Shown: positions 50,790 through 61,888, numbered from the stretch's first letter. The stretch: 64,000 nt of DNA from an uncultured Solirubrobacterales bacterium (GCA_963723075.1 CAVRPD010000001.1:53726-117725); one strand, 5' to 3'. Numbers and translations: made by a program. Notes: generated by a model not told the origin, from the letters alone.

Positions 50790-52184
50790 TCAGCCCACCG
50801 AGCTGTGGGAGGGCCCCGGCAACGGCCCGTGCTCGGCCTCGAACTCGAGTTTGACGCGTGCGAACACTTCCAGCGCCCGGTCGAGCGTGGGAGTGTCGTG
50901 CGTGGCCATCACGCTGGTGCGCAACAGCGCGCCGCCGGGCGGGACCGCCGGGTGCAGGGCACAGTTCGTGAACACGCCGCCGTCATACAGCGCGCGCCAG
51001 AGCAGCGCGGCCTTCCAGTCGTCGCCGACGAGCAAGGGGACGATTGGCGTGACGATCGTCCCCGTGGGAGCGTCCTCGCCCGGACCGAGTCGCACGGGCT
51101 CGCCGCTCAACACCTGAAAGCCGAGCGCGCGCAGCCCGTCGGCCAGGTAGCGCGCCTGCTCGAGTACCGCCGCAAGCAGCGCGGGCCCCTCCGGGGAGCG
51201 GATGATGCGCAGGGCGGCCAGGGCCGCCCCCAGGGCCGCTGGGACGGCGGAGGCGGTGAACAGGAACGCGCGCGAGGAGATCCGCAGGTAGTCGATCACA
51301 TCGGCCGGCCCGGCGAGGAAACCGCCACAGGAGGCGAAGGACTTCGAGAAGGTGCCCATGCGCAGGTCGACGCGGGCCTCGACCCCCAGCAGCTCGGCTG
51401 CTCCCGCGCCACGCGCGCCGAGCACACCTGCGCCGTGGGCTTCGTCCACCATCAGACGGGCGCCGTAGCGGGCGCACAGCTCGGTGATGTCCACGAGCGG
51501 CGCGACATCGCCCTCCATCGAGAAGACGCCGTCGACGACCACCATGACGCCGCCCCCGTCCTGCTGTGCTCGCGACAGGGCTCGCTCCAGCTTGTCGAGG
51601 CGGCCGTGGCGAAAGGGCCGCATCTTGGCCTTCGACAGCAGCACGCCGTCGAGGATCGAGGCGTGGTCGGCAGAGTCGACGATCACCGTGTCGGCGGGAC
51701 CGAGCAGCGTGCCGAGCGTGCCCACGTTCGCCTGATGGCCGGTGGTGAAGACGATCGCGTCGTCGGTGTCCATCCATTCGGCGAGCTCGCGCTCGAGCTC
51801 GAGGTGCAGGGGGGTGGTGCCGTTGAGCAGGCGCGAGCCGGTGAGGCCGGTGCCATAGCGGTGCAGCGCGTCCTCGGCGCCCTTCATCACGCGCTCGTCG
51901 GCGGTCAGCCCGAGGTAGTTGTTCGACGCGAGCATGATCCGCGGCGCGCCCTCCATCTCGACGACCGGCATCGCGGGCGACTCGACCGTGCGGAAGTAGG
52001 GCAGCAGCCCCTCCTCGCGCGCCGCCCGCAGCAGCTGCTCGCGCTCATGGCCGCGGACCTTGGCGAAGACGTCGGGCGGCTGTGCGCCGGGCAGGGCTTC
52101 GACGGGCCTTGCGTAGTCGTCCGTCGGAGGCTCGCCGGGCAAGTCCTCGGCCGGTCTCGCGGAGTCGTCTGTCGAAGTGGGCAT
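50790..52184 (-). CDS. Alpha-oxoamine synthase, serine palmitoyltransferase-like (PLP-dependent)
   Basis: 'LASNNYLGL', 'GSRLLNGT', 'DSADHASILDG', 'FRHGRLDKLERAL', 'VDEAHGAG', PLP-Lys 'GTFSKS' and 'LLRTSVMATHT'. By recollection this block order closely parallels bacterial SPT rather than BioF or Kbl. Confidence 0.8.
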   Translation of the reverse strand: MPTSTDDSARPAEDLPGEPPTDDYARPVEALPGAQPPDVFAKVRGHEREQLLRAAREEGLLPYFRTVESPAMPVVEMEGAPRIMLASNNYLGLTADERVMKGAEDALHRYGTGLTGSRLLNGTTPLHLELERELAEWMDTDDAIVFTTGHQANVGTLGTLLGPADTVIVDSADHASILDGVLLSKAKMRPFRHGRLDKLERALSRAQQDGGGVMVVVDGVFSMEGDVAPLVDITELCARYGARLMVDEAHGAGVLGARGAGAAELLGVEARVDLRMGTFSKSFASCGGFLAGPADVIDYLRISSRAFLFTASAVPAALGAALAALRIIRSPEGPALLAAVLEQARYLADGLRALGFQVLSGEPVRLGPGEDAPTGTIVTPIVPLLVGDDWKAALLWRALYDGGVFTNCALHPAVPPGGALLRTSVMATHDTPTLDRALEVFARVKLEFEAEHGPLPGPSHSSVG

Positions 52185-52198
52185 ATAAGGTTGGATCA

Positions 52199-53356
52199 GT
52201 GAGCGTGTCTGAGCGAACGGGCGTCCAGGTCACACCGGTATCCGGCAGGGCGGACCTGAAAGCCTTCATCCACCTGCCGTTCCGGCTGCATGCTAACCAT
52301 CCGCTGTGGGTTCCCCTGCCGAAGCTCGAGCGCTGGGTGTTCTTGAACCGCCGGCTGAACGCTTTCTTCAGCCATGGCGAAGCCGAGTACTTCCTCGCTC
52401 GGCGCGACGGGCGGGTCGTGGGGCGGATCACAGCCCAGGTCAACCATGCGTTCAACGACTACCAGAAGAAGCGCTGGGGCTGGTACGGGTTCCTGGAGCT
52501 CGAGGACGACCAGGAGGTCCTCGACGCGTTGCTCGCGGCCGCCGAGGCGTGGTTGCGCGCGCGGGGCATGGAGCGCATGGTGGGCCCGGCCGACTTTTCG
52601 ATGAACGAAGAGAGTGGCATCCTGATCGAGGGCTTCGAGCTGCGGCCGATGATCAAGCAGCCCTGGCACCCGCCCTACTATCAGCAGCGCATGGAGCAGG
52701 CGGGGATGAGCAAGGCGATGGACCTGCTGATGTGGAAACTCGAGGTGTCCGACCGCAAGAAGGTGCTGCCCGTGATTTGGGAGCTCGCGGAGAAGGTGCA
52801 GTCCGAGCACGGGATCAGGGTGCGCCCGATGCGCCGCTCCCAGCTGCGCAAAGACATGGACGCCTTCGCCGAGGTCTACAACGCCGCGTGGTCTCAGAAC
52901 TGGGACTTCGTGCCGTACTCGAAGAAGGACCTCGACGCCTACGCCCAGGAGATCCAGCTGGTGTTCGACAAGCACTGGTGCTTCATCGCCGAGCGCGAAG
53001 ACACCGGCGAGGTGGTCGGCATGGCGATGACCTTCCCCGACATCAATCAGGTGCTCGAAAAAATGAACGGCCGCTTCTTCCCGCTCGGCTGGTGGCATTT
53101 TCTGCGCAAGGGCAAGGTCACCGACCGCGTGCGCGTCGGCTTTCTGGGCGTCAAGCCCGAGTACCAGCACACGGGCGTGGCGGCGAGGCTCTACCAACTG
53201 CATTTCGACGCGGCCGAGCATCGCCCGCAGAAGGGCGGGGAGATGGGCTGGATCCTCGAGACCAACACCCCGATGAACCGCGGCATGGAAGCGATGGGGG
53301 CAGAGGTGGTCAAGCGCTACCGGGTTTACGAGCGGCTGCTCGAGGCAGGGGCCTAG
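52199..53356 (+). CDS. ~385-aa GNAT-like N-acyltransferase family protein
   Basis: GTG at 52199. 'LKAFIHLPFRLHANHPLWVPLP', 'WGWYGFLE', 'GPADFSMNEESGILIEGF', 'LGVKPEYQHTGVAARLY' and 'GWILETNTPMNRGME'. Confidence 0.7.
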   Translation: MSVSERTGVQVTPVSGRADLKAFIHLPFRLHANHPLWVPLPKLERWVFLNRRLNAFFSHGEAEYFLARRDGRVVGRITAQVNHAFNDYQKKRWGWYGFLELEDDQEVLDALLAAAEAWLRARGMERMVGPADFSMNEESGILIEGFELRPMIKQPWHPPYYQQRMEQAGMSKAMDLLMWKLEVSDRKKVLPVIWELAEKVQSEHGIRVRPMRRSQLRKDMDAFAEVYNAAWSQNWDFVPYSKKDLDAYAQEIQLVFDKHWCFIAEREDTGEVVGMAMTFPDINQVLEKMNGRFFPLGWWHFLRKGKVTDRVRVGFLGVKPEYQHTGVAARLYQLHFDAAEHRPQKGGEMGWILETNTPMNRGMEAMGAEVVKRYRVYERLLEAGA

Positions 53357-53473
53357 CACCCGGCCCGATGGCGCCGCTTCGATCAGGGCCAAGCAGCCAG
53401 CCTATCCTCGCCGCTCCGATCAGCCGCTCGCCGGCGGCCCAACGCCGCCGCCCCTATCTCTAGACTCGTCAGG

Positions 53474-53818
53474 GTGAGCGAGCCCGCAGAGCCAGAGGCG
53501 GTTACCGGGGACACCGAGGAAGTCGACGCGCTCGTGGTGCTCCCCGAGGCTCAGGTGCTCGTGGCGCAGACGCCCTCACGGGCGATGGTCCCTGTCGCCC
53601 AGGCCGCGGCGGTGGCGGCCGGAGGGTTCGTAGCGGGCGCCGCCGTGGTCGGTCTCGTGGGCCGTCACCGGGCCAGGAGATCGCGCGGGCTGGCCGCACG
53701 TCGGCGAGGCGGGGGGAAGGAGCGCATGCGTGGTGCGGAGCTGCTGCAGATCGTAGGCAGCCGCTCGCTGCTGGTAGACGTGCACCTGCTCGGTGGACGC
53801 GGCGGTGTTGGACAGTAG
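53474..53818 (+). CDS. Small hypothetical protein with one TM helix
   Basis: GTG start. It has an acidic N-terminus, a TM helix 'AAAVAAGGFVAGAAVVGLVG' and a basic stretch. Its stop lies inside a tandem duplication. Confidence 0.4.
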   Translation: MSEPAEPEAVTGDTEEVDALVVLPEAQVLVAQTPSRAMVPVAQAAAVAAGGFVAGAAVVGLVGRHRARRSRGLAARRRGGGKERMRGAELLQIVGSRSLLVDVHLLGGRGGVGQ

Positions 53819-53863
53819 GACGCACACGTGCTCGGTGGACGCGGCGGCTCCGGACAGCAGGAC
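53777..53863. repeat. ~42-bp tandem duplication (2 copies, a few mismatches)
   Basis: The core tgctcggtggacgcggcgg occurs at 53787-53805 and 53829-53847. The flanks are cac(c/g)...ggacag(t/c)aggac. Confidence 0.8.
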
Positions 53864-53921
53864 TGCTGCTACTCGGGACGGCAAGGACAGGTCTGCGGGT
53901 CTGCGGGAGGTGCGCCGTGAG

Positions 53922-54782
53922 GTGAGGCCGGCAAGCGTGTTTCGGCTACCACAGCGTCTCGGTATGGACGGCGTGACACGCAGACGGGGAGGCGTGATCG
54001 AGCGGTTGCTGCACGACGAGCACGGCGAGCCCGTTGTCGTGCGAGTAGCGCAGACTGCGCCCGACGCGGTGCTGTTCGGCGCGTGCGCAGCGAGCCGACG
54101 GAGCGCCGAGCACGGGATCGCGCGCATGCGCTTCGCACTGGGCGTCGACGACGATCTGCGCGCGTTCTGCAAGCGTCATGCGGGAGATCCGCTGATCGGC
54201 GCCTCGCTGCGGCGCCGGCCGTGGCTGCGGGTGGGCCGCAGGCCCGAGCCGTTCGAGGCGCTTGTGTGGGCCGTGTGTGAGCAGCTGATTGAGTACGAGC
54301 GAGCGGCCGCGATCCAGAGCCGGCTGGTGAGGCGCTGCGGGCGGCGCTGGAGCAGCGCGGACGCCGCGAGCTGGGCAGCGGGGCTGCGCGACCTGCCGAC
54401 GGCGGTGACGCTCGCTGGGATGGCGCCGGCGCTGCTCGAGTCGTGCGACCTTGCGGGCGCGCGCGCTCTCGCGCTGAGAAAGGCGGCGGGTGAGGTCGCC
54501 TGCGGACGGATCGACCTGCACGGGGTGGAGCACGAGCGTGGATGGAAGCGGCTGCGCGCGATTCCCGGGATCGGAGCGTGGACGGTCGAGATACTGGCGC
54601 TGCGCGGGCAGGGCCGCTACGACCAACTGCCGGCCGGAGACATCGGGCTGCTGAAGCTCGCCGGGCGCGTTCTCAGTGGCGGCGATCCCCGCGCGCGCGC
54701 AAGCAAAGACGAAGTGCGAGAGCTGTTCGCGCCCTACGGCGAGTGGGCGGGACTGGCCGCGGTGCACGCCGCCGGCCTGTAG
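53922..54782 (+). CDS. AlkA-like DNA-3-methyladenine glycosylase II (HhH-GPD with N-terminal domain)
   Basis: 'EALVWAVCEQLIEYERAAAIQSRL', 'IPGIGAWTVEILALRG' (HhH) and 'LPAGDIGLLK'. The GTG at 53922 was chosen for its GGGAGG spacing. Start uncertain. Confidence 0.8.
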   Translation: MRPASVFRLPQRLGMDGVTRRRGGVIERLLHDEHGEPVVVRVAQTAPDAVLFGACAASRRSAEHGIARMRFALGVDDDLRAFCKRHAGDPLIGASLRRRPWLRVGRRPEPFEALVWAVCEQLIEYERAAAIQSRLVRRCGRRWSSADAASWAAGLRDLPTAVTLAGMAPALLESCDLAGARALALRKAAGEVACGRIDLHGVEHERGWKRLRAIPGIGAWTVEILALRGQGRYDQLPAGDIGLLKLAGRVLSGGDPRARASKDEVRELFAPYGEWAGLAAVHAAGL

Positions 54783-54847
54783 TGCTTCACCACTCGACAA
54801 GCCTGCGGTGACAACTGAAGCTTTGGCTCGGGCGAGTTGGCCTGCCT

Positions 54848-55021
54848 CTATGGCCCCATGGTCTCGTCGAAGTGGCGAATGAACGCTGCGAGGCAGCCCG
54901 CGAACACGATGATCGCTGCCGTCCACAAGGGTGCGCCGAGGACGAGTGCGCCTGCAATCACGGCATCGAGCAGCAGCCACATGACGAGGTCGTAGCGGTC
55001 AAAGATGTCGAAGCCGGTCAC
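54848..55021 (-). CDS. Small two-helix membrane protein (57 aa)
   Basis: Own translation: VTGFDIFDRYDLVMWLLLDAVIAGALVLGAPLWTAAIIVFAGCLAAFIRHFDETMGP. The GTG overlaps the upstream stop (GTGA). It is below the ORF-track length cutoff. Confidence 0.4.
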   Translation of the reverse strand: MTGFDIFDRYDLVMWLLLDAVIAGALVLGAPLWTAAIIVFAGCLAAFIRHFDETMGP

Positions 55022-55365
55022 GTGATAACCCTATCAATGAAGACAAAGAGCGTCGGTGGGCCGAGAAGCATCCCGACCAGTAGGCCCTGTCCAAGTCCAC
55101 GGTTGATCCGTCGCACCAGCGAGTCGGACCGGCTCGGGATGAACAGCGCCACGGTCGCCGGCAGTCCCGAGAAGAGCACGGTGGCACCCCCCAAGACGCC
55201 TGTCCAAGCGAGCAGGCCGTTGACGGCGGCTGTCCCCAGAGAAGGGTTGGTCTCGCAGAGGATGCGAATTGTGGCGCTTGCGTTCACGGCCGACAAAACT
55301 ACGCATCGCTTGAGACGGGAGGGGTGACTTGGCCTCCCTGCGACCGCGAAACGCCTGCAAATCAC
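55018..55365 (-). CDS. Small membrane protein of unknown function
   Basis: 115-aa ORF with 2-3 hydrophobic helices ('AAVNGLLAWTGVLGGATVLFSGLPATVALFI', 'LLVGMLLGPPTLFVFI'). It starts 27 nt after the ferredoxin stop on the same strand. Start uncertain. Confidence 0.45.
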   Translation of the reverse strand: MICRRFAVAGRPSHPSRLKRCVVLSAVNASATIRILCETNPSLGTAAVNGLLAWTGVLGGATVLFSGLPATVALFIPSRSDSLVRRINRGLGQGLLVGMLLGPPTLFVFIDRVIT

Positions 55366-55392
55366 CCACCGAACTGGCAGGCCCGGAAGCGG

Positions 55393-55614
55393 TCAGGGAA
55401 AGCGAATAGGGGTCCGGTCGCGTTCGAGCAGCAGCGCGAACGTGGGGCAGGCCAGGGCCGCACGCCGGGCGTGGTCGACCAGGGCGTCCGGCACGGGGCG
55501 GCCGTCGATTACGGGATAGCCCCACTCGTCGAGTGAGATGTGCTCCGGCAGCAGCTCGGCGCACATGCCGTGCGCCTCGCAGGCGATCGGGTTCACGCGC
55601 AGGCGGTGGCTCAT
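55393..55614 (-). CDS. Small single-cluster ferredoxin (CxxHxxC...CP type)
   Basis: MSHRLRVNPIACEAHGMCAELLPEHISLDEWGYPVI...ALACPTFAL. The ATG overlaps the stop of the NuoF-like gene (ATGA). Confidence 0.8.
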   Translation of the reverse strand: MSHRLRVNPIACEAHGMCAELLPEHISLDEWGYPVIDGRPVPDALVDHARRAALACPTFALLLERDRTPIRFP

Positions 55615-57032
55615 GGGAGGCGCCGTCCTGTTCGTGGGACTCCGGCCGGACGACCGACGCCGGTGGCGCGAGGGGATTCGGCTCCGGCCCGCAGAGGCAG
55701 CGGCAGCTCGCTGGGCCGCTCGCAGGCCTCGCAGTGTCCGTGCCGGGCGTGATCGGCGAGCTCCGCGGCGAACGTCTCGACCGCGCTGAGCACGAACTTG
55801 ACGGCGCCGTCGGGATGGCGGCAGGCGCCGCGACCCCGCGCGAGCGAGGCAAGTTGGGCGATGCGCTCCGTGGCCCCGGCCTGGGCGACGCCGCCCGCGA
55901 GCTCCTGAACGGTGGCGGCGATCGTGTCGAGGCCGTGCACGCACGGGCCGCACTGCCCGGCGCTCTCCTCCGCGAGCCAGCGCGCCGCGCGGGCGGTCTC
56001 GGCGACCGGGCAGGCGTGCTCGGACAGCAGCAGCACCACACCGGCGCCCAGCGAGGCGCCGTATGGAGCCAGATGTTCGTTCGACAGTGAAAGATCCTCC
56101 AAGTGCTCTCGGCCGATCCATGTGCCGCCGTAGCCACCGAGCAGCGCGGCGCGCACACGCGCGGTCGTATCTCCGCCGGCTTCGATCAGCGAGGCGAGCG
56201 AGGCGCCGTGCTCGATCTCATACACCCCCGGGTAGGCCACCGTGCCCGTGAGGGTCACGAGCGCGGAGCCGGGCTGGGAGGGCGTGCCGAGCCGGCGAAA
56301 CCAGTCGGCGCCGTGACGCGCGATCAAAGCGATGTGCGCGAGCGTCTCGACGTTGTCGACGAGCGTCGGCCTGCGCCCGACCCCGGCTTCGAACGGCAGC
56401 GGCGGGGTGAACGTCGGTTTGGCGGCGCCGCCGTTCAGCCGGCTGACGAGCGCCGACTCCTGACCTGCGACATAGCCCGCGGGAACGGTGCTCAGATGCA
56501 CGCGCGGCGAACGATCGGAGGACGTTGGCGCTGCGGACCGTTCCTCGATCGCGCACGCGAGGCTCTCATAGCTCGCGAACGCCGACTCGCACACGCACAG
56601 GATCAGCTCCTCTGCGCCGACGGCCTGCGCGGCGAGGACGCCACCATCGAGCACCAGATGAGGCGCTGTCTCCAGCAGCGTGCGGTCCTTGAGGCTCGCG
56701 GGCTCCCCCTCGGCCCCGTTGGCCACCACGACAGCTCGACGACCGCGTTCGGTGACCGCGCGCATCTTCCTGGCGGTCGGGAACGCCGCACCACCGCGAC
56801 CGAGCAGGCCGGCGCGCTCGACCTCCTCGATCAACGCGCTTGCGCCCTCGCGCCGGCGCCGCCGTCGGCGCTCGTGTGCGGAGGGGGGCGGTCCGTGCGC
56901 TTCGAGATGGGCGGCGAGCCCCAGCGGGCCGTCGTGCGCCTGGACGCCCAGCAGCAGGCGCGGCAGCGCGGGCACGGCGCGCTCCTGAGCGATCCTCGGG
57001 GGCTCGATCGTCCTCGACGGCGCCTCGCTCAT
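55611..57032 (-). CDS. NuoF-like (Complex I 51-kDa family) NAD(P)H dehydrogenase/Fe-S protein
   Basis: Starts at MSEAPSRTIEPP within ORF 55611..57614. It has 'GLLGRGGAAFPTARKM', 'VVANGAEGEPASLKDR', 'GYVAGQESAL' and 'SAGQCGPCVHG'. Confidence 0.85.
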   Translation of the reverse strand: MSEAPSRTIEPPRIAQERAVPALPRLLLGVQAHDGPLGLAAHLEAHGPPPSAHERRRRRRREGASALIEEVERAGLLGRGGAAFPTARKMRAVTERGRRAVVVANGAEGEPASLKDRTLLETAPHLVLDGGVLAAQAVGAEELILCVCESAFASYESLACAIEERSAAPTSSDRSPRVHLSTVPAGYVAGQESALVSRLNGGAAKPTFTPPLPFEAGVGRRPTLVDNVETLAHIALIARHGADWFRRLGTPSQPGSALVTLTGTVAYPGVYEIEHGASLASLIEAGGDTTARVRAALLGGYGGTWIGREHLEDLSLSNEHLAPYGASLGAGVVLLLSEHACPVAETARAARWLAEESAGQCGPCVHGLDTIAATVQELAGGVAQAGATERIAQLASLARGRGACRHPDGAVKFVLSAVETFAAELADHARHGHCEACERPSELPLPLRAGAESPRATGVGRPAGVPRTGRRLP

Positions 57033-57751
57033 CGCCGGCTCCCGCTCTTGACGGCTGTCTTTGAGCGGGCGAGCAGCGCGGTGGGCGTGCCCGAGCGACG
57101 CGCCCATTCCGACCCGAGCGGACCACTGGGGAGCCACAGCAGCAGGAACACGGCGAACAGCCCCGTGCCGCCGACGGCAGCACCGCGCAGCCGCGCGCGC
57201 TTGGGACCTGGTCCGGTCAGCACCCGCGCGAGCGTCGCGGCCGCCACGATCGCCACGCAGGCGAGGCTGAGCGCAAGCAACCACGCGCTTTGCACGTCGC
57301 TGCCCGTGCCCAGCCCGTGCAGCAGCGCGATCGGCCAGCTCGCGTACGTGAGCCAGTGGATCGCACGCCAGCTCGTGTAGCCGATGCGCTGGCGCAGCAG
57401 GCTCGTGATCGTCACCGCCAGCAGCAGATCGAACGCGAGCGCTCCCAGCCCGAGCCAGAAAGGACGGTAGGAGCCGACAAACGGCACGAACGCGTCGATC
57501 AGCGGGATCGACGCGAAGCTGTCGAGCACCGAGGTGAGGATGTGCAGGACAAGGAAGGCCATCGCCAGCAGCGAGACGTTGCGGTGCAGCGAGTCCACCA
57601 CGAAACGCGGCCATCGCGGGGTGCTCCAGCGTTTGACGTCCACCACGCCGAGGGCGATCGCGAGCGTCAGCAGCAACAGCGCCATCGCTCCGGTCGAGCG
57701 CGTCAGATACCAGTAGGCGCTCCCCCCGGCGGCTGTCGCCAAGGGCGTCAT
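57029..57751 (-). CDS. Ferric-reductase-type (FRD/NOX-like) bis-heme transmembrane protein with no fused FAD/NAD domain
   Basis: MTPLATAAGGSAYWYLTRSTGAM..., about 6 TM helices. It has His pairs H-x13-H ('HRNVSLLAMAFLVLH') and H-x12-H ('HWLTYASWPIALLH'). ATGA overlaps at both ends. Confidence 0.8.
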   Translation of the reverse strand: MTPLATAAGGSAYWYLTRSTGAMALLLLTLAIALGVVDVKRWSTPRWPRFVVDSLHRNVSLLAMAFLVLHILTSVLDSFASIPLIDAFVPFVGSYRPFWLGLGALAFDLLLAVTITSLLRQRIGYTSWRAIHWLTYASWPIALLHGLGTGSDVQSAWLLALSLACVAIVAAATLARVLTGPGPKRARLRGAAVGGTGLFAVFLLLWLPSGPLGSEWARRSGTPTALLARSKTAVKSGSRR

Positions 57752-58770
57752 TGCGCGGGCCAGCCTCCCACCGTGGTCACGTTTCCGCCACGGTCGAGCA
57801 GCCGCGCCGGCAGGCCCAGCTGCTCGAGCCACGGGGCCGCCCTGCGCGAGCGTACGAGCGCGGCGGTCGTCGCGATGTTCGCGTCCGCACAGCACGCCGC
57901 CGCGACGCTCACCGTGCGCCAGACGGTCCCCACGGGCGCCTGGCTCACGGGATCGATGATGTGGTGCATCGTCCGGCCGCCGTGGCTCCAGCGCCGCACC
58001 GCCGTGCTCGAGGTCGCCAGGCCGCCGGAGGCGATCGAGACGGTCTGCCCCGGCGCCGAAGGATCGCCGCGGCAGTCGTCGGTGACCCGTATCCGCCAGC
58101 CGCCGGCGGGCGCCTCACCGCAGGTGGCGATGTCGCCGCCGATCGAGACCAGCACTCCGCAGCCGCTCGCTCGCGCGGCGCGCTCGGCCGCACGATCGGC
58201 GGCCCAGGCTTTGGCGCTCGCCCCGAGGTCGAGCCGGATCGGGCTCGGCACGCGCACGGTCGATCGTACGTGGTCGAGAACCACCGAGCGCCAGCCGCTG
58301 ATCGCGCGCGCCGCGATCGCTGCACGGTGCCCAGGCTCGCCGCGCCGGGCGGGCTCGCCGTGCGACTCGAGGGTGCCATGGCGTTCGTACGTGGCGTACG
58401 GCGGGGGCTCACCGTGTGGCGGGGCCAGGAGCAGCCGATCGCGATCGTACCCGGCAAGCTCCAGCGCCCGGCCGAGCGTCGGATCGACGTCGCCGTCCGT
58501 GAGCTCGGCTCCGCGCAGGGCCACCGTGAGCGCCTCCACCAGCAGCGGGCTGATCCGGACCGGGCGGCCGCCTGCTCGGTTCACTCGCGAGAGCTCGGAG
58601 TCCGCGCGAAAGCGGCTGCACGCGCGGTCGATCGCGTCCAACTCGTGCTCGACCGTCGCGCGCGCGATCTCGAGCGCGTCAGGGTCGGCCAAACGCAGCA
58701 CGACGCTCGTGCCCAGCGCCTCCCACCTCGCGGTGTCAGGCTTCGCTGTGATTCCCGATGCTTCCCTCAT
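57748..58770 (-). CDS. apbE: FAD:protein FMN transferase (ApbE family), no signal peptide evident
   Basis: 340 aa with 'RFRADSELSRVN', 'DVDPTLG' and 'VLVSIGGDIATCG'. An in-frame stop lies immediately upstream of the ATG. Confidence 0.85.
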   Translation of the reverse strand: MREASGITAKPDTARWEALGTSVVLRLADPDALEIARATVEHELDAIDRACSRFRADSELSRVNRAGGRPVRISPLLVEALTVALRGAELTDGDVDPTLGRALELAGYDRDRLLLAPPHGEPPPYATYERHGTLESHGEPARRGEPGHRAAIAARAISGWRSVVLDHVRSTVRVPSPIRLDLGASAKAWAADRAAERAARASGCGVLVSIGGDIATCGEAPAGGWRIRVTDDCRGDPSAPGQTVSIASGGLATSSTAVRRWSHGGRTMHHIIDPVSQAPVGTVWRTVSVAAACCADANIATTAALVRSRRAAPWLEQLGLPARLLDRGGNVTTVGGWPAQ

Positions 58771-58777
58771 CTAACTC

Positions 58778-59437
58778 TCACGATCCACCGGAGACGACCG
58801 GGGCGGAGGCTTCCTGGGAGGGAGCCGTTTCGGATTCTTTGGCCTGTGAGGATTCCTGTGCGGCTGCCGCTTCTTTGGTTCGCGCGGCTTCCTGTGCGGC
58901 TGCCGCTTCTTTGGTTCGCGCGGCTTCCTGTGCGGCCGTGGCTTCTTTGGTTCGCGCGGCTTCCTGTGCGGCCGTGGCTTCTTTGGTTCGCGCGGCTTCC
59001 TGTGCGGCCGTGGCTTCTTTGGTTCGCGCGGCTTCCTGTGCGGCCGCGGCTTCTTTGGCCGCACTTGATTCCTGCGCCGATGTCGATTCCTTGGCCGTTG
59101 TCGATTCTTTGGCTGTGGTCGATTCCGAAGCGGTCCGCGGGGCCTCGGCAGGGGAGTGCAGCGCTTTGGTCGTGGACGAGTGGTCGGTCGAGGAGGAGGC
59201 GCCTGTGCGCCCACTCGCCTGCCCGCGCGCGCTTTTCGCCTTGGCCGCCGTTGCCGAACCGCTCTTCACAACGGTCTTACCGGGAAAAGCGTGCGCCGCG
59301 ACATCGGTCAGCACGCCGGTTGCGAGGACGCTCCCCGCAATCACTATTCGATTGACACGGCTGAGCCTGTGCAGGGCGGCGTCGCGAGCCCTGGTTGTGT
59401 GACTGCTGGCACTCGTCGGTTTACGCTTGCGTGTCAT
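58778..59437 (-). CDS. Membrane-anchored low-complexity protein with 12-aa tandem repeats (QEAARTKEA[T/A]AA)
   Basis: Basic N-terminus, one TM helix ('IVIAGSVLATGVLTDVAAHAF'), then a Ser/Thr/Ala/Lys/Glu-rich tail containing 5 near-identical repeats. First gene of the ApbE operon. Confidence 0.6.
   Translation of the reverse strand: MTRKRKPTSASSHTTRARDAALHRLSRVNRIVIAGSVLATGVLTDVAAHAFPGKTVVKSGSATAAKAKSARGQASGRTGASSSTDHSSTTKALHSPAEAPRTASESTTAKESTTAKESTSAQESSAAKEAAAAQEAARTKEATAAQEAARTKEATAAQEAARTKEATAAQEAARTKEAAAAQEAARTKEAAAAQESSQAKESETAPSQEASAPVVSGGS
58870..59049. repeat. 5 x 36-bp head-to-tail tandem repeat (coding, in frame)
   Basis: The unit cttctttggttcgcgcggcttcctgtgcggc(c/t)g(c/t)(c/g)g is repeated at 58870, 58906, 58942, 58978 and 59014. 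Degenerate copies flank it. Confidence 0.9.
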
Positions 59438-59538
59438 GCCAAGAGTTTGTGCAGTGTGGCTAAGGATCGGATAACCGCTTGGTGAGAAAGCTCATCGAAA
59501 ATCCGCGCCTAGAAGATCGTGCGCTTATCCTTTGGCCG

Positions 59539-60315
59539 ATGAGCTCGGCTTTGGACCCCGGCCGCGAACAGGGGGGACGAGGGCGGAGCGGATCGCCGCC
59601 GGTCGCCGTGCACAGGGACGCCGACCTGGCGGGCAAGTCCGCCCGCGTGCTCCTGATCGAGGACGAGCCCGGGATCGTCGACTTCGTCAAACGGGGCTTG
59701 GAAGCGGAGGGCTTCGCGGTCGAGGCGGCGCTTGACGGGGTCGAGGGTGAGCGGCTCGCGCTGCGGGAGGACTTCGACGGGATCGTGCTCGACCTGATGC
59801 TTCCGGGCCGCTCCGGCCTGCAGATCCTCGCCGCCGTGCGCCGCGCCAAGCCGAGCGTGCCCGTGATCGTGCTGACCGCGCGCGGCGAGATCGAGGATCG
59901 CGTCGCGGGACTGGACGCGGGCGCCGTCGACTATCTCGTCAAGCCCTTCTCCCTGGCCGAGCTGCTCGCGCGTGTGCGCGCACAGCTGCGCGTCCTCGCG
60001 GAGGCCTCCTCGAGCGTCCTCACCGCCGAGGGGATCGAAGCGAACCTGATCACACGCAAGGTGCGACGCGGTAAACGGATGATCCAGCTATCGACGACGG
60101 AGTTCGAGCTGCTGGTCTACCTGATGCGCCACGACGGGCAGGCGCTCTCACGCGAGCAGATCCTCGGCGCCGTATGGGGCTACGAGCACGATCCGGCGAC
60201 GAACGTGGTGGACGTCTACGTCGGCTACCTGCGTCGCAAGCTCGCCGGTCCCGAGGAGCCGGCGCCGATCCACACGGTGCGCGCCGTCGGCTATCGCCTC
60301 GGCGGCAAGGCCTAG
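59539..60315 (+). CDS. OmpR/PhoB-family response regulator
   Basis: 'RVLLIEDEPGIV', 'DGIVLDLMLPG', 'VIVLTARG', 'DYLVKPF' and wHTH 'LSTTEFELLVYLMRH...VDVYVGYLRRKL...IHTVRAVGYRL'. Start uncertain (ATG 59539 or GTG 59608). Confidence 0.88.
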   Translation: MSSALDPGREQGGRGRSGSPPVAVHRDADLAGKSARVLLIEDEPGIVDFVKRGLEAEGFAVEAALDGVEGERLALREDFDGIVLDLMLPGRSGLQILAAVRRAKPSVPVIVLTARGEIEDRVAGLDAGAVDYLVKPFSLAELLARVRAQLRVLAEASSSVLTAEGIEANLITRKVRRGKRMIQLSTTEFELLVYLMRHDGQALSREQILGAVWGYEHDPATNVVDVYVGYLRRKLAGPEEPAPIHTVRAVGYRLGGKA

Positions 60316-60364
60316 TGCCCCGAGCCCTACGGCGATTCATGCCCGTCGGTCGTCTGCCCGAGCG

Positions 60365-61888
60365 ATGAGGCGGCTCCGCGATCGCCCGAGGGCACTCGGG
60401 CTGCGCTGGCGCCTGGCGGGGTGGATAGCCGTCGTGACGTTGATCTGCATCGGGATCGTCTTCGTCGCGGTCTATCGCGGCACCGGCACTCAGCTGCGCG
60501 GGCAGATCGACCGGGAGATCGGCGGCGACGCGCGCGAGCTCGCCCACAACCTCCTCGACAGTCGCGCGCGCACCGCACGAGCGCTCTCCGAGACCGCCGC
60601 CCGGTATGTGCGCGACCAGCCGTTCAGCGCCAGCTCGACGCTGCTGTTCGCGATCGTGCCAGGCGCGCCCACCAGCACGAACCGTCCCGAGCTGCTCTCG
60701 CCCTCGGCCCCCGACAACGGCGAGACGGTCGCCGAGCAAGGCCAGGAGAACCGCCTTTCGGCGCGGATCCTCGCTGCGCCGGAGACCTACTCGACGCTGC
60801 CGCTGCCGGACGTCGGCAATCTGCGCCTGCTCAAGCGCATCGTGCGCGTGGGCGGTGGGCTCAGTGCGACGATCGGGGTGGGGGAGCCGCTCGCCGCCGT
60901 GGCGCACGCCCAGAGCGGGGTGGCCCGTACGTTCGTGCTCGCCGGCGCCCTCGCGCTCGCCGGCGCCCTGCTCGCAGCCTACGTGGTCGGCACCCGTGTG
61001 TCGGGCCCGCTGCGCCGTATGGCCGCCGTCGCCGCCCGCGTCGACGCGGGAGACCTGCACCCACGCATTCACGACGTCCGCGGTCAGGGCGAGGAGGTGA
61101 AGGTCATGGCCGACTCCTTCAACCACATGCTCGACCGCCTCACCGACGCGTTCGCCGGTCAGCGCGCCTTCGTCGCCGATGCCTCGCATGAGCTGCGCAC
61201 GCCGCTGACGGTGATCCGCGGCCAGCTCGAGCTGCTCCTCGCCCAGGAAAGTCCTGCCGATGAGGAGCTGCGCCGCGTCGAGCGTCTCGTGCAGGCCGAG
61301 ATCGCGCGGATGGGGAGGCTCCTCGACGACCTGTTGCTGCTGGCCAAGACCGAGCAGGCTCAATCGCTGCGATTGGAGCCGATCGATCTGCCCACCTACG
61401 TGGGCGAGCTGTGGGACGGCACGAGCCTGCTCGCCCGGCGCCGCTTCGAGCTGGGACCGATCCCGGCGGGCCGGCTGACCGCCGATCCCGATCGATTGGC
61501 GCAGGCGTTGCGCAACCTGATCGCCAACGCGATCGCCCACACCGACCCCGAGCACGGGCTGGTGCGCATGCGTGTCGAGCGGATCGAGCGCCCTGGGCGC
61601 GAGTACCCCTCCGCGGGCGGGGTCGTGGCGAAAACGGGCGTTCGCTTCCTGGTCGAAGACGACGGGCCCGGCATCCCGGTCGATCAGCGCGAGCGGGTCT
61701 TCGACCGTTTTCACCGCACCGACGCCGCCCGCGATCGCGCCTCTGGCGGGGCGGGCTTGGGGCTGGCGATCGTGCGGGCGATAGCTGAGGCTCATGGCGG
61801 TCGCGTGACGGCGGGAGCCTCGGCCGAGGAAGGTGCTCGCATCGCTCTCGAGCTGCCCCGCTTCGCGCCCGCACGCGCGAGCGTCTGA
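60365..61888 (+). CDS. Sensor histidine kinase (TM-sensor-TM-HAMP-HisKA-HATPase)
   Basis: H-box 'SHELRTPLTVIRGQLELL', N-box 'LRNLIANAIAHT', G1 'VEDDGPGI' and G2 'GGAGLGLAIV'. Confidence 0.9.
   Translation: MRRLRDRPRALGLRWRLAGWIAVVTLICIGIVFVAVYRGTGTQLRGQIDREIGGDARELAHNLLDSRARTARALSETAARYVRDQPFSASSTLLFAIVPGAPTSTNRPELLSPSAPDNGETVAEQGQENRLSARILAAPETYSTLPLPDVGNLRLLKRIVRVGGGLSATIGVGEPLAAVAHAQSGVARTFVLAGALALAGALLAAYVVGTRVSGPLRRMAAVAARVDAGDLHPRIHDVRGQGEEVKVMADSFNHMLDRLTDAFAGQRAFVADASHELRTPLTVIRGQLELLLAQESPADEELRRVERLVQAEIARMGRLLDDLLLLAKTEQAQSLRLEPIDLPTYVGELWDGTSLLARRRFELGPIPAGRLTADPDRLAQALRNLIANAIAHTDPEHGLVRMRVERIERPGREYPSAGGVVAKTGVRFLVEDDGPGIPVDQRERVFDRFHRTDAARDRASGGAGLGLAIVRAIAEAHGGRVTAGASAEEGARIALELPRFAPARASV

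Follow-up and report, generated by a model that had tools for sequence, protein, structure and literature searches.

What does an ApbE-family protein modify when its operon encodes no FMN_bind domain? The question is raised by a locus of an uncultured Solirubrobacterales bacterium (GCA_963723075.1 CAVRPD010000001.1:53726-117725). At positions 54848-61888 of the 64,000-nt stretch analysed here (the window), open reading frame (ORF) calls and Pfam matches place on the minus strand, in this order, a repeat protein (rep), ApbE, a ferric-reductase/MsrQ-like protein (FRD), a NuoF-like protein and a ferredoxin (Fdx), with a two-component system transcribed divergently (Table 1). The initial annotation of this DNA had seen no FMN-bind domain, and a Pfam search likewise finds no match to FMN_bind (PF04205) at E ≤ 0.1 in any ORF of the window operon. 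From the existence of orphan ApbEs it has been concluded that some substrates remain to be discovered (Méheust et al., 2021, PMC8238504). The evidence described here points to the C-terminal heptapeptide of rep as a candidate flavinylation tag, in a cluster that is very probably a dedicated NAD(P)H-to-membrane redox module, of a kind that may be described as NAD(P)H-fed transmembrane electron transfer, “MsrQ-like, flavinylation-associated”.

Table 1. Features of the locus, with window positions, strand and basis of assignment.
Feature	Position	Strand	Basis
Strain-level insertion with m1 and m2	54783..55414	-	homology breakpoints vs L002, L003
m2, small membrane ORF	54848-55021	-	ORF call
m1, small membrane ORF	55018-55365	-	ORF call
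Fdx, small single-cluster ferredoxin, 73 aa	55393..55614	-	Fer4_15 1.9e-9
NuoF-like NAD(P)H dehydrogenase, 473 aa	55611..57032	-	PF01512 3e-33, PF10589 6e-16, SLBB
FRD, ferric-reductase/MsrQ-like six-helix membrane protein, 240 aa	57029..57751	-	PF01794
ApbE-family protein, 340 aa	57748..58770	-	PF02424 1.8e-49
rep, 219 aa, candidate flavin carrier	58778..59437	-	ORF; directly upstream of apbE
rep C-terminal heptapeptide P-V-V-S-G-G-S, then stop codon; proposed flavinylation tag	58781..58801	-	conservation
36-bp tandem repeat in rep, 5.7 copies, 97% identity, encodes (AAQEAARTKEAT)n	58853..59058	-	Tandem Repeats Finder (TRF)
rep N-terminal module, aa 12-55	59273..59404	-	family alignment (A1)
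Divergent promoter/operator region	59438..59541	.	conserved element
OmpR-family response regulator (RR)	59542..60315	+	Response_reg + Trans_reg_C
Sensor histidine kinase (HK), HAMP + HisKA + HATPase_c	60365..61888	+	Pfam

Conservation is one of the grounds for the proposal. A scan for FRD relatives, taking one genome per species, returned 218, from which 80 loci were kept, all Solirubrobacterales; a second scan covered metagenome contigs and took a less closely related rep branch as seed. The terminus SGGS is found in 76 of 78 genome loci, the other two looking like frame errors, and complete metagenome rep ORFs end in SG[GA]S in 68 of 70 cases. Among 146 sequences recovered by phmmer, the termini are VSGGS (95), VSGAS (4), ISGGS (6) and TSGGS (3), and the remainder are fragments or low-complexity noise. 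In distant lineages SGGS alternates with SGAS, which is the canonical [S/T]GA[S/T] motif of ApbE targets. A conserved [ST]G[AGS][ST] is found in the operon proteins only at the rep tail. Two internal sites of rep were considered and rejected, as neither is conserved in relatives: KSGSAT, which the initial annotation had wrongly taken for the nearest acceptor motif, and TGAS at aa 78-81, which was overlooked when that annotation reported no clean [S/T]GA[S/T] motif.

The tail is encoded immediately upstream of apbE, and could be read as nothing but the Shine-Dalgarno sequence of that gene. This explanation was rejected: the Pro, both Val and both Ser residues are invariant, and the codons vary synonymously everywhere, Gly and Pro each being encoded by four codons and Ser by up to four TCN codons. 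Synonymous variation of this sort indicates selection at the peptide level, beyond any acting on the G-rich stretch that serves apbE for ribosome binding. Published work on known targets makes such a tag chemically plausible. The minimal ApbE motif has been defined as seven residues, D-x-x-[S/T]-G-A-[S/T], with FMN on the last one and Ser accepted there; replacing D by A has a minor effect, A to V leaves ~50% flavinylation, and engineered flavin-tags perform best at a protein terminus (PMC12052999). In FMN_red proteins, flavinylation has been validated at sites that lie on unstructured C-terminal extensions (PMC11334425). For the rep family, its C-terminal tag or an ApbE of the type described below, no paper was found in a literature search of incomplete coverage.

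Gene arrangement associates the same peptide with ApbE. The gene directly upstream of apbE is rep in 78 genome loci, these 78 upstream genes forming one family of fixed layout, and where metagenome contigs extend 400 bp or more past a motif-bearing rep (54 loci), the next gene is apbE in 49. The apbE start nearly always lies 0-7 nt from the rep stop or overlaps it (TGAGATG, TGATG), and apbE is translationally coupled to rep in ~95% of loci. The window spacing is 7 nt, one less than the 8-nt gap previously given, with an in-frame TAG immediately before the apbE ATG. Further downstream, ATGA overlaps join apbE to frd, frd to nuoF and nuoF to fdx, and a GTGA overlap joins two small membrane ORFs, m1 and m2, which accounts for all four 4-nt overlaps that had been claimed. 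No terminator-like site was detected inside the operon on the minus strand by a terminator scan; matches of the sigma-70 promoter and terminator scans on the plus strand are artefacts of the tandem repeat in rep.

The initial annotation had proposed an operon of seven genes and had named a lack of conserved order in relatives as an argument against it. All seven ORFs are present, and the layout is nearly constant over ~80 Solirubrobacterales species genomes, with HK and RR divergent, followed by [memX]-rep-apbE-frd-nuoF-like-fdx, where memX is a further membrane protein gene present in many loci. Metagenome contigs that reach far enough downstream mostly have the identical architecture. The operon thus stands for its five core genes, which are a conserved, translationally coupled unit; it does not extend to m1 and m2, which lie in an insertion absent from species-level relatives.

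The redox proteins of this unit have the domains that had been assigned to them, as Pfam matches confirm for ApbE, Ferric_reduct, Complex1_51K with SLBB and NADH_4Fe-4S, and Fer4_15. FRD, encoded directly downstream of apbE, scores 37 bits against PF01794 (4e-9, cutoff 28). It has >6,900 database homologues, the closest of which (75-92% identity) come from metagenome-assembled genomes of Solirubrobacteraceae/Solirubrobacterales; look-ups of the exact FRD and ApbE sequences of the window for genomic context returned no record. The two histidine pairs noted earlier, His56/His70 (H-x13-H) and His132/His145 (H-x12-H), are invariant in 82 of 82 sequences. An AlphaFold2 (AF2) model from a shallow alignment, used for helix boundaries only, has six predicted helices, and the concern that heme ligands might fall outside the membrane helices is not borne out, as both pairs lie inside helices 47-78 and 125-147 of this low-confidence model (predicted local distance difference test (pLDDT) 59). 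The best Foldseek match, STEAP2, is non-significant (E = 0.06). From its histidines and domain match, FRD is a putative bis-heme b transmembrane wire.

The NuoF-like protein retains the FMN site/NADH signatures and has SLBB and Fe-S domains. Its score against the NuoF model TIGR01959 is 231 bits for a cutoff of 558.65, and the remaining NuoF models are below cutoff too; by these scores it falls outside complex I NuoF proper, and the likeness is at the domain level only. In its N3 motif, (A/T/S)-x2-C361-x2-C364...C404, the first Cys of the canonical C-x2-C-x2-C is missing. Cys341, 361, 364 and 404 are invariant and an extra C434-x2-C437 pair is conserved too, a pattern that suggests altered or additional metal ligation, in which Cys341 could stand in for the missing cluster ligand. 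Fdx scores 38.5 bits against Fer4_15 (cutoff 22.4), and its CxxHxxC...CP motif (C12, H15, C18, C56) is conserved in 76-78 of 78 sequences. Domain content and invariant ligands together fit a path from NAD(P)H through the NuoF-like protein and Fdx to an inner and then an outer heme.

Several database sources label FRD homologues “sulfoxide reductase heme-binding subunit YedZ”, and this label is what would favor an MsrPQ-type or quinone-linked system, in which FRD, like MsrQ, feeds a periplasmic reductase while ApbE and rep are incidental neighbors. That explanation is highly improbable. No MsrP or other molybdoenzyme is encoded within +/-7 kb in the 80 loci, the neighbors of frd are a dedicated NuoF-like/Fdx donor pair, and the gene order that includes ApbE and rep is far more conserved than expected by chance.

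The reading preferred here gives ApbE and rep a place in the chain. NAD(P)H would reduce the FMN of the soluble NuoF-like protein, whose Fe-S cluster would pass electrons to the small Fdx, and Fdx would deliver them to the inner and then the outer b-heme of the four-His FRD; these steps are proposed from domain content. Motif, gene coupling and conservation suggest that rep, largely unstructured, takes the place of an FMN_bind domain, with the co-translated ApbE esterifying FMN to the terminal Ser of PVVSG(G/A)S, which would make the tail a naturally occurring analog of the engineered seven-residue flavin-tag. The N-terminal helix of rep would put the protein in or through the membrane, where a spacer of 60-170 residues could let the flavin carry electrons away from the outer heme toward an extracytoplasmic acceptor; the location of rep and the output of the chain are the weakest step. 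We regard the full chain, NAD(P)H to NuoF-like protein to Fdx to bis-heme FRD to FMN on the terminal Ser of rep, as evenly balanced between right and wrong. The electron path given by the initial annotation is still the most economical reading, with an acceptor site other than the KSGSAT it had named.

The enzyme itself is central to how this reading is weighed. The window ApbE matches PF02424 with 169 bits (cutoff 25.6) and has the PDB relatives 1vrm, 3pnd, 4xdt and 6nxi. Three conserved active-site residues, Ser-His-Asp, have been named for the family (PMC12052999). Alignments to 1vrm, 3pnd and 4xdt, together with the exact spacing of 16 and 28 residues, assign them here: Ser254 corresponds to Ser241 of Vibrio cholerae and His270 to His257, both invariant (80/80 each), and the third position is Asn298 (80/80); Thr302 is kept in 78/80. 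The N-terminus is non-hydrophobic in the window protein and in 80 orthologues, and the best 19-residue hydropathy window is internal. This agrees with the earlier claim that ApbE has no signal peptide, and the protein is predicted to be cytoplasmic.

Several observations weigh against a flavinylated rep tail at the end of the chain. Asn298 (codon 57877-57879) replaces Asp285 of V. cholerae and Asp284 of Treponema pallidum, a substitution also found in the distant loci L083 and L086, and such an ApbE could have different or reduced activity; alternatively, as a speculation, Asn298 could be an adaptation to a target Ser whose free alpha-carboxylate lies near the Mg/pyrophosphate site. Compared with D-x-x-[ST]-G-A-[ST], the tail matches at S, G and S; the D position is taken by P and the A position usually by G. 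Rare operons depart from the common layout: in four (L082, L099, L132, L158) the order is rep-frd-nuoF-fdx and apbE is absent from the fetched DNA, and in three (L086, L087, L119) it is rep-apbE-nuoF-fdx without frd. Further points are the low confidence of the FRD model and a topological conflict, a predicted cytoplasmic ApbE being paired with a rep N-terminus that resembles a signal anchor or signal peptide.

These features leave room for an explanation that we consider unlikely but credible, in which the same redox chain operates with rep unmodified. The signal-less, Asn-variant ApbE would then serve in flavin trafficking, act as an FAD pyrophosphatase or flavinylate a protein encoded elsewhere; rep would be a scaffold or anchor, and its invariant tail would serve in docking or sorting, with FRD or memX as possible partners. 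A conserved Mg-binding/catalytic Asp is replaced by Asn, and the family does include an FAD pyrophosphatase, Ftp of T. pallidum (PMC4767422). A tail that lacks the canonical Asp and usually the Ala, and rep operons that lack apbE, are also in its favor. However, it leaves unexplained why the operon's only conserved flavinylation-like motif is this tail, why the tail switches to the canonical SGAS in several lineages, and why apbE is so widely coupled to rep in translation; Ser254 and His270 of ApbE are moreover intact. The rep proteins of the four operons without apbE all end in APVVVSG[GA]S.

Whether a flavinylated tail would lie inside or outside the membrane depends on rep, for which no Pfam or PHROG family was found. 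The family numbers 278 representative clusters in an index-free phmmer search over 1.84 billion representative proteins, and a profile search of a word-indexed protein database with the 44-aa N-terminal alignment returned only 12 truncated fragments. The proteins from the 78 genome loci follow one plan: a basic N-terminal segment, a hydrophobic helix, a basic Ser/Thr-rich stretch, PPAQAPQ, an acidic spacer and the C-terminal PVVSGGS. The N-terminal consensus is HTxxRDAALxRLxRxNR-WLIAGSVxLTGVxx(D/E)xAAxAFPG(K/R), in which, by alignment numbering, R7, A23, A37 and A39 are invariant and D8, L11, L14, N18, R19 and F40 are at least 90% conserved. AF2 places a helix at 13-50. Its best 19-residue Kyte-Doolittle window has a borderline family mean of 1.55 and contains the conserved Asp/Glu, both flanks are basic (+3.5 and +2.9), and invariant Ala residues at -3 and -1 before FPGK are arranged like a signal-peptidase site. 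The module may serve as a docking helix, as a signal anchor or, with AxA as the cleavage site, as a signal peptide.

The presence of the spacer is conserved and its sequence is not. In relatives it is non-repeat, hypervariable and rich in Pro, Glu, Ser and Gln (62-168 aa, 15% Pro, 28% Ser/Thr). In the window it takes a window-specific form as the 36-bp repeat, which agrees with the tandem-repeat protein reported earlier and is recent, and which AF2 predicts from the single sequence as one ~95-residue helix (109-203, pLDDT >90). Both forms have the look of a stalk or wall-spanning segment, which favors an extracytoplasmic tail. A third short motif, L-x-PPAQAPQ, lies between the basic and acidic parts (“SPAEAPR” at aa ~94-100 in the window) and could be a processing or docking site.

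An FRD topology consistent with an outer tail was derived from the positive-inside rule and the Pfam register against MsrQ; it is not a computed topology. On this basis, the N-terminus would be outside, the basic loops 1, 3 and 5 inside and the conserved loops 2 and 4 outside, and the extra sixth helix would place the conserved C-tail WLPxGPLGSEWARRSGTP outside as well. The outside loops and C-tail are where a flavin partner would dock.

The same data can be read with rep flavinylated but cytoplasmic, its FMN tail being a swinging arm that connects NuoF-like/Fdx with the inner heme. The helix would dock on a partner or on the inner face of the membrane, and the tail would replace the FAD domain of a fused NOX. 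ApbE, the NuoF-like protein and Fdx are all predicted to be cytoplasmic, rep, NuoF-like protein and Fdx form the invariant core of the operon across loci, which in three cases has no FRD, and the rep helix is only marginally hydrophobic, with a conserved Asp/Glu and basic flanks on both sides. We consider this arrangement improbable, as a variable Pro/Ser/Thr/Glu-rich spacer of 60-170 residues is more typical of a wall-spanning stalk, the Ala residues before FPGK resemble a signal-peptidase site, and the most conserved FRD loops would face outward.

If the tail does lie outside, an ApbE that lacks an export signal implies that flavinylation precedes export; otherwise the tail stays cytoplasmic. 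One form of the extracytoplasmic reading is a disordered “flavin on a leash”, with FMN added to the last residue of rep by the cytoplasmic Asn-variant ApbE before export and then serving external acceptors. The flavin would be held at the membrane or released from it, and electrons from the outer heme of FRD would pass through the Gram-positive wall. We offer this version tentatively and with considerable doubt. The acceptor may be a metal ion, because the divergent two-component system resembles CopRS-type sensors.

Parts of this design have precedents. Méheust et al. (2021) described 1,797 MsrQ-like clusters, mostly from Actinobacteria, which typically combine apbE with an FMN_bind gene; 31 of these have a NuoF-like protein and no fused NAD-binding domain (PMC8238504). 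The domain-split architecture, which the initial annotation did not recognise, had therefore been catalogued, although it was never characterised experimentally. The window operon resembles this NuoF-like subtype in its two-heme PF01794 protein beside apbE, its separate NuoF-like protein (PF10589), its actinobacterial origin and the proposed NAD(P)H-driven electron export, and its frd, next to apbE, fits the definition of MsrQ-like clusters, a PF01794 gene within five genes of an ApbE, FMN_bind, DUF2271 or DUF3570 gene. However, a disordered SG(G/A)S-tailed protein here replaces the flavoprotein, and Fdx and the two-component system are constant neighbors. The catalogue was filtered for a signal peptide or lipidation site on the ApbE, FMN_bind or DUF protein (PMC8238504). 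The present cluster type has neither a signal on ApbE nor an FMN_bind partner, the latter typical but not obligatory, and was thus probably excluded from that count; the portion of the supplementary tables covered contains no Solirubrobacter or Thermoleophilia entries.

Other comparisons concern the individual components. The engineered Flavin-tag (Tong et al., 2021, cited in PMC12052999) is likewise a terminal seven-residue peptide, and it suffices for ApbE to attach FMN to the last Ser/Thr; the tag reads D-x-x-[ST]-G-A-[ST], whereas rep has P-V-V-S-G-(G/A)-S, with Ser-Gly-x-Ser, and is a candidate only. FMN_red proteins also carry the motif on an unstructured C-terminal extension and are encoded beside apbE, but their extension folds back on their own flavin-binding domain (Huang et al., 2024, PMC11334425), and rep has no folded flavin-binding domain. 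With NOX/FRE/STEAP and with MsrQ plus Fre, FRD shares the six-helix core and the H-x13-H/H-x12-H pairs, which in FRD are predicted to carry two b-hemes for transmembrane electron transfer from cytoplasmic NAD(P)H; the dehydrogenase here is unfused and replaced by a complex-I-type NuoF-like flavo-Fe-S protein and a ferredoxin. Relative to MsrQ, in the Pfam register, FRD lacks the first helix and has an additional C-terminal one. Cytoplasmic ApbE2 of Klebsiella pneumoniae has no signal peptide either, and serves a soluble fumarate reductase (cited in PMC12052999). In contrast to the situation proposed here, its substrate is a folded FMN_bind domain with a canonical motif, and there is no membrane cytochrome partner.

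What appears to be new at this locus is the pairing of a disordered protein, bearing a candidate natural flavin-tag, with an Asn-variant ApbE that has no signal peptide, instead of FMN_bind. ApbE flavinylation is generally taken to need a folded flavin-binding domain, such as FMN_bind, DUF2271, DUF3570, Flavodoxin_4 or FMN_red. If the proposal is true, rep would provide the first case in nature of a minimal flavin-tag at the end of a disordered protein and a new substrate class without a folded flavin-binding domain, and its ApbE would be the first clade with an altered active-site residue. Soil Solirubrobacterales that carry the system number hundreds of species, and related metagenome lineages have it too (218 FRD relatives among species genomes, 278 rep clusters). 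Were the tail extracellular, it would point to a new electron-export route for abundant soil actinobacteria, e.g., in metal reduction, and one would have to ask how a chain bearing a flavin gets through the membrane. Protein labelling might also profit from a short tag of natural origin together with its cognate enzyme.

The additional membrane protein genes differ in their relevance to this system. memX lies between the regulator and rep in 56 of 81 loci (e.g., L001:7752-8456) and encodes ~230 aa with five helices, invariant His71, His149, His163 and His167, and a weak, sub-threshold match to DUF4405. Recent work has shown that proteins of DUF4405 are membrane cytochromes associated with flavinylation (PMC11334425), and memX may be a second membrane cytochrome. 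PF04205 has no match at E ≤ 1 in memX or rep of L001. No tblastn match to memX was found in the window; the gene is lost in this strain and in its nearest relatives, L002 and L003. A single memX-rep fused ORF (P0153) shows signs of frameshift and was not used as evidence for topology.

m1 and m2 were ruled out as components of the system, as they are confined to a strain-level insertion downstream of fdx. DNA homology to L002 and L003 stops at 55415 and restarts at 54782, which defines an insertion of ~630 bp. Its sequence has no match in any of the 81 loci, tblastn found neither ORF there, and neither belongs to a Pfam or PHROG family. The insertion is absent from the 80 species-level relatives, including ones with FRD 88-89% identical, and recurs in one near-identical strain (L168), where it has the same position and m2 is present. 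Beyond it, downstream of the operon at 50790-54782, the window holds aminotransferase, acetyltransferase-like and AlkA-like (HhH-GPD) genes that are syntenic in many relatives; a functional link to the operon is not evident.

On the other side of the operon, the two-component genes are stable neighbors, RR adjoining it in nearly all loci and HK being syntenic in relatives. The best NCBIfam match of RR is the heavy-metal response regulator model TIGR01387 (216 bits, cutoff 279), and that of HK is TIGR01386, cztS/silS/copS (205 bits, cutoff 292). By these matches both proteins resemble most closely the heavy-metal CopRS/CusRS-type subfamilies, below their cutoffs. The RR ORF opens at 59479 and its likely start is the ATG at 59542, which gives an intergenic region of ~104 bp, close to the ~100 bp previously estimated for the divergent OmpR/HK pair. 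Within this region, upstream of the first operon gene, lies a conserved element, ATGAGCTTTCTCA(T/C)..GCGGTTATCCGATCCTTAG, composed of ATGAGCTTTCTCAT, an imperfect inverted repeat, and then GCGGTTATCCGATCCTTAG; its plus-strand form is GGTGAGAAAGCTCATC at ~59481-59496. Of 66 orthologous intergenic regions, 40-41 contain 9-mers of this element, which is also seen in the distant locus L087 (617-830) and is likely an operator for the adjacent RR or another regulator.

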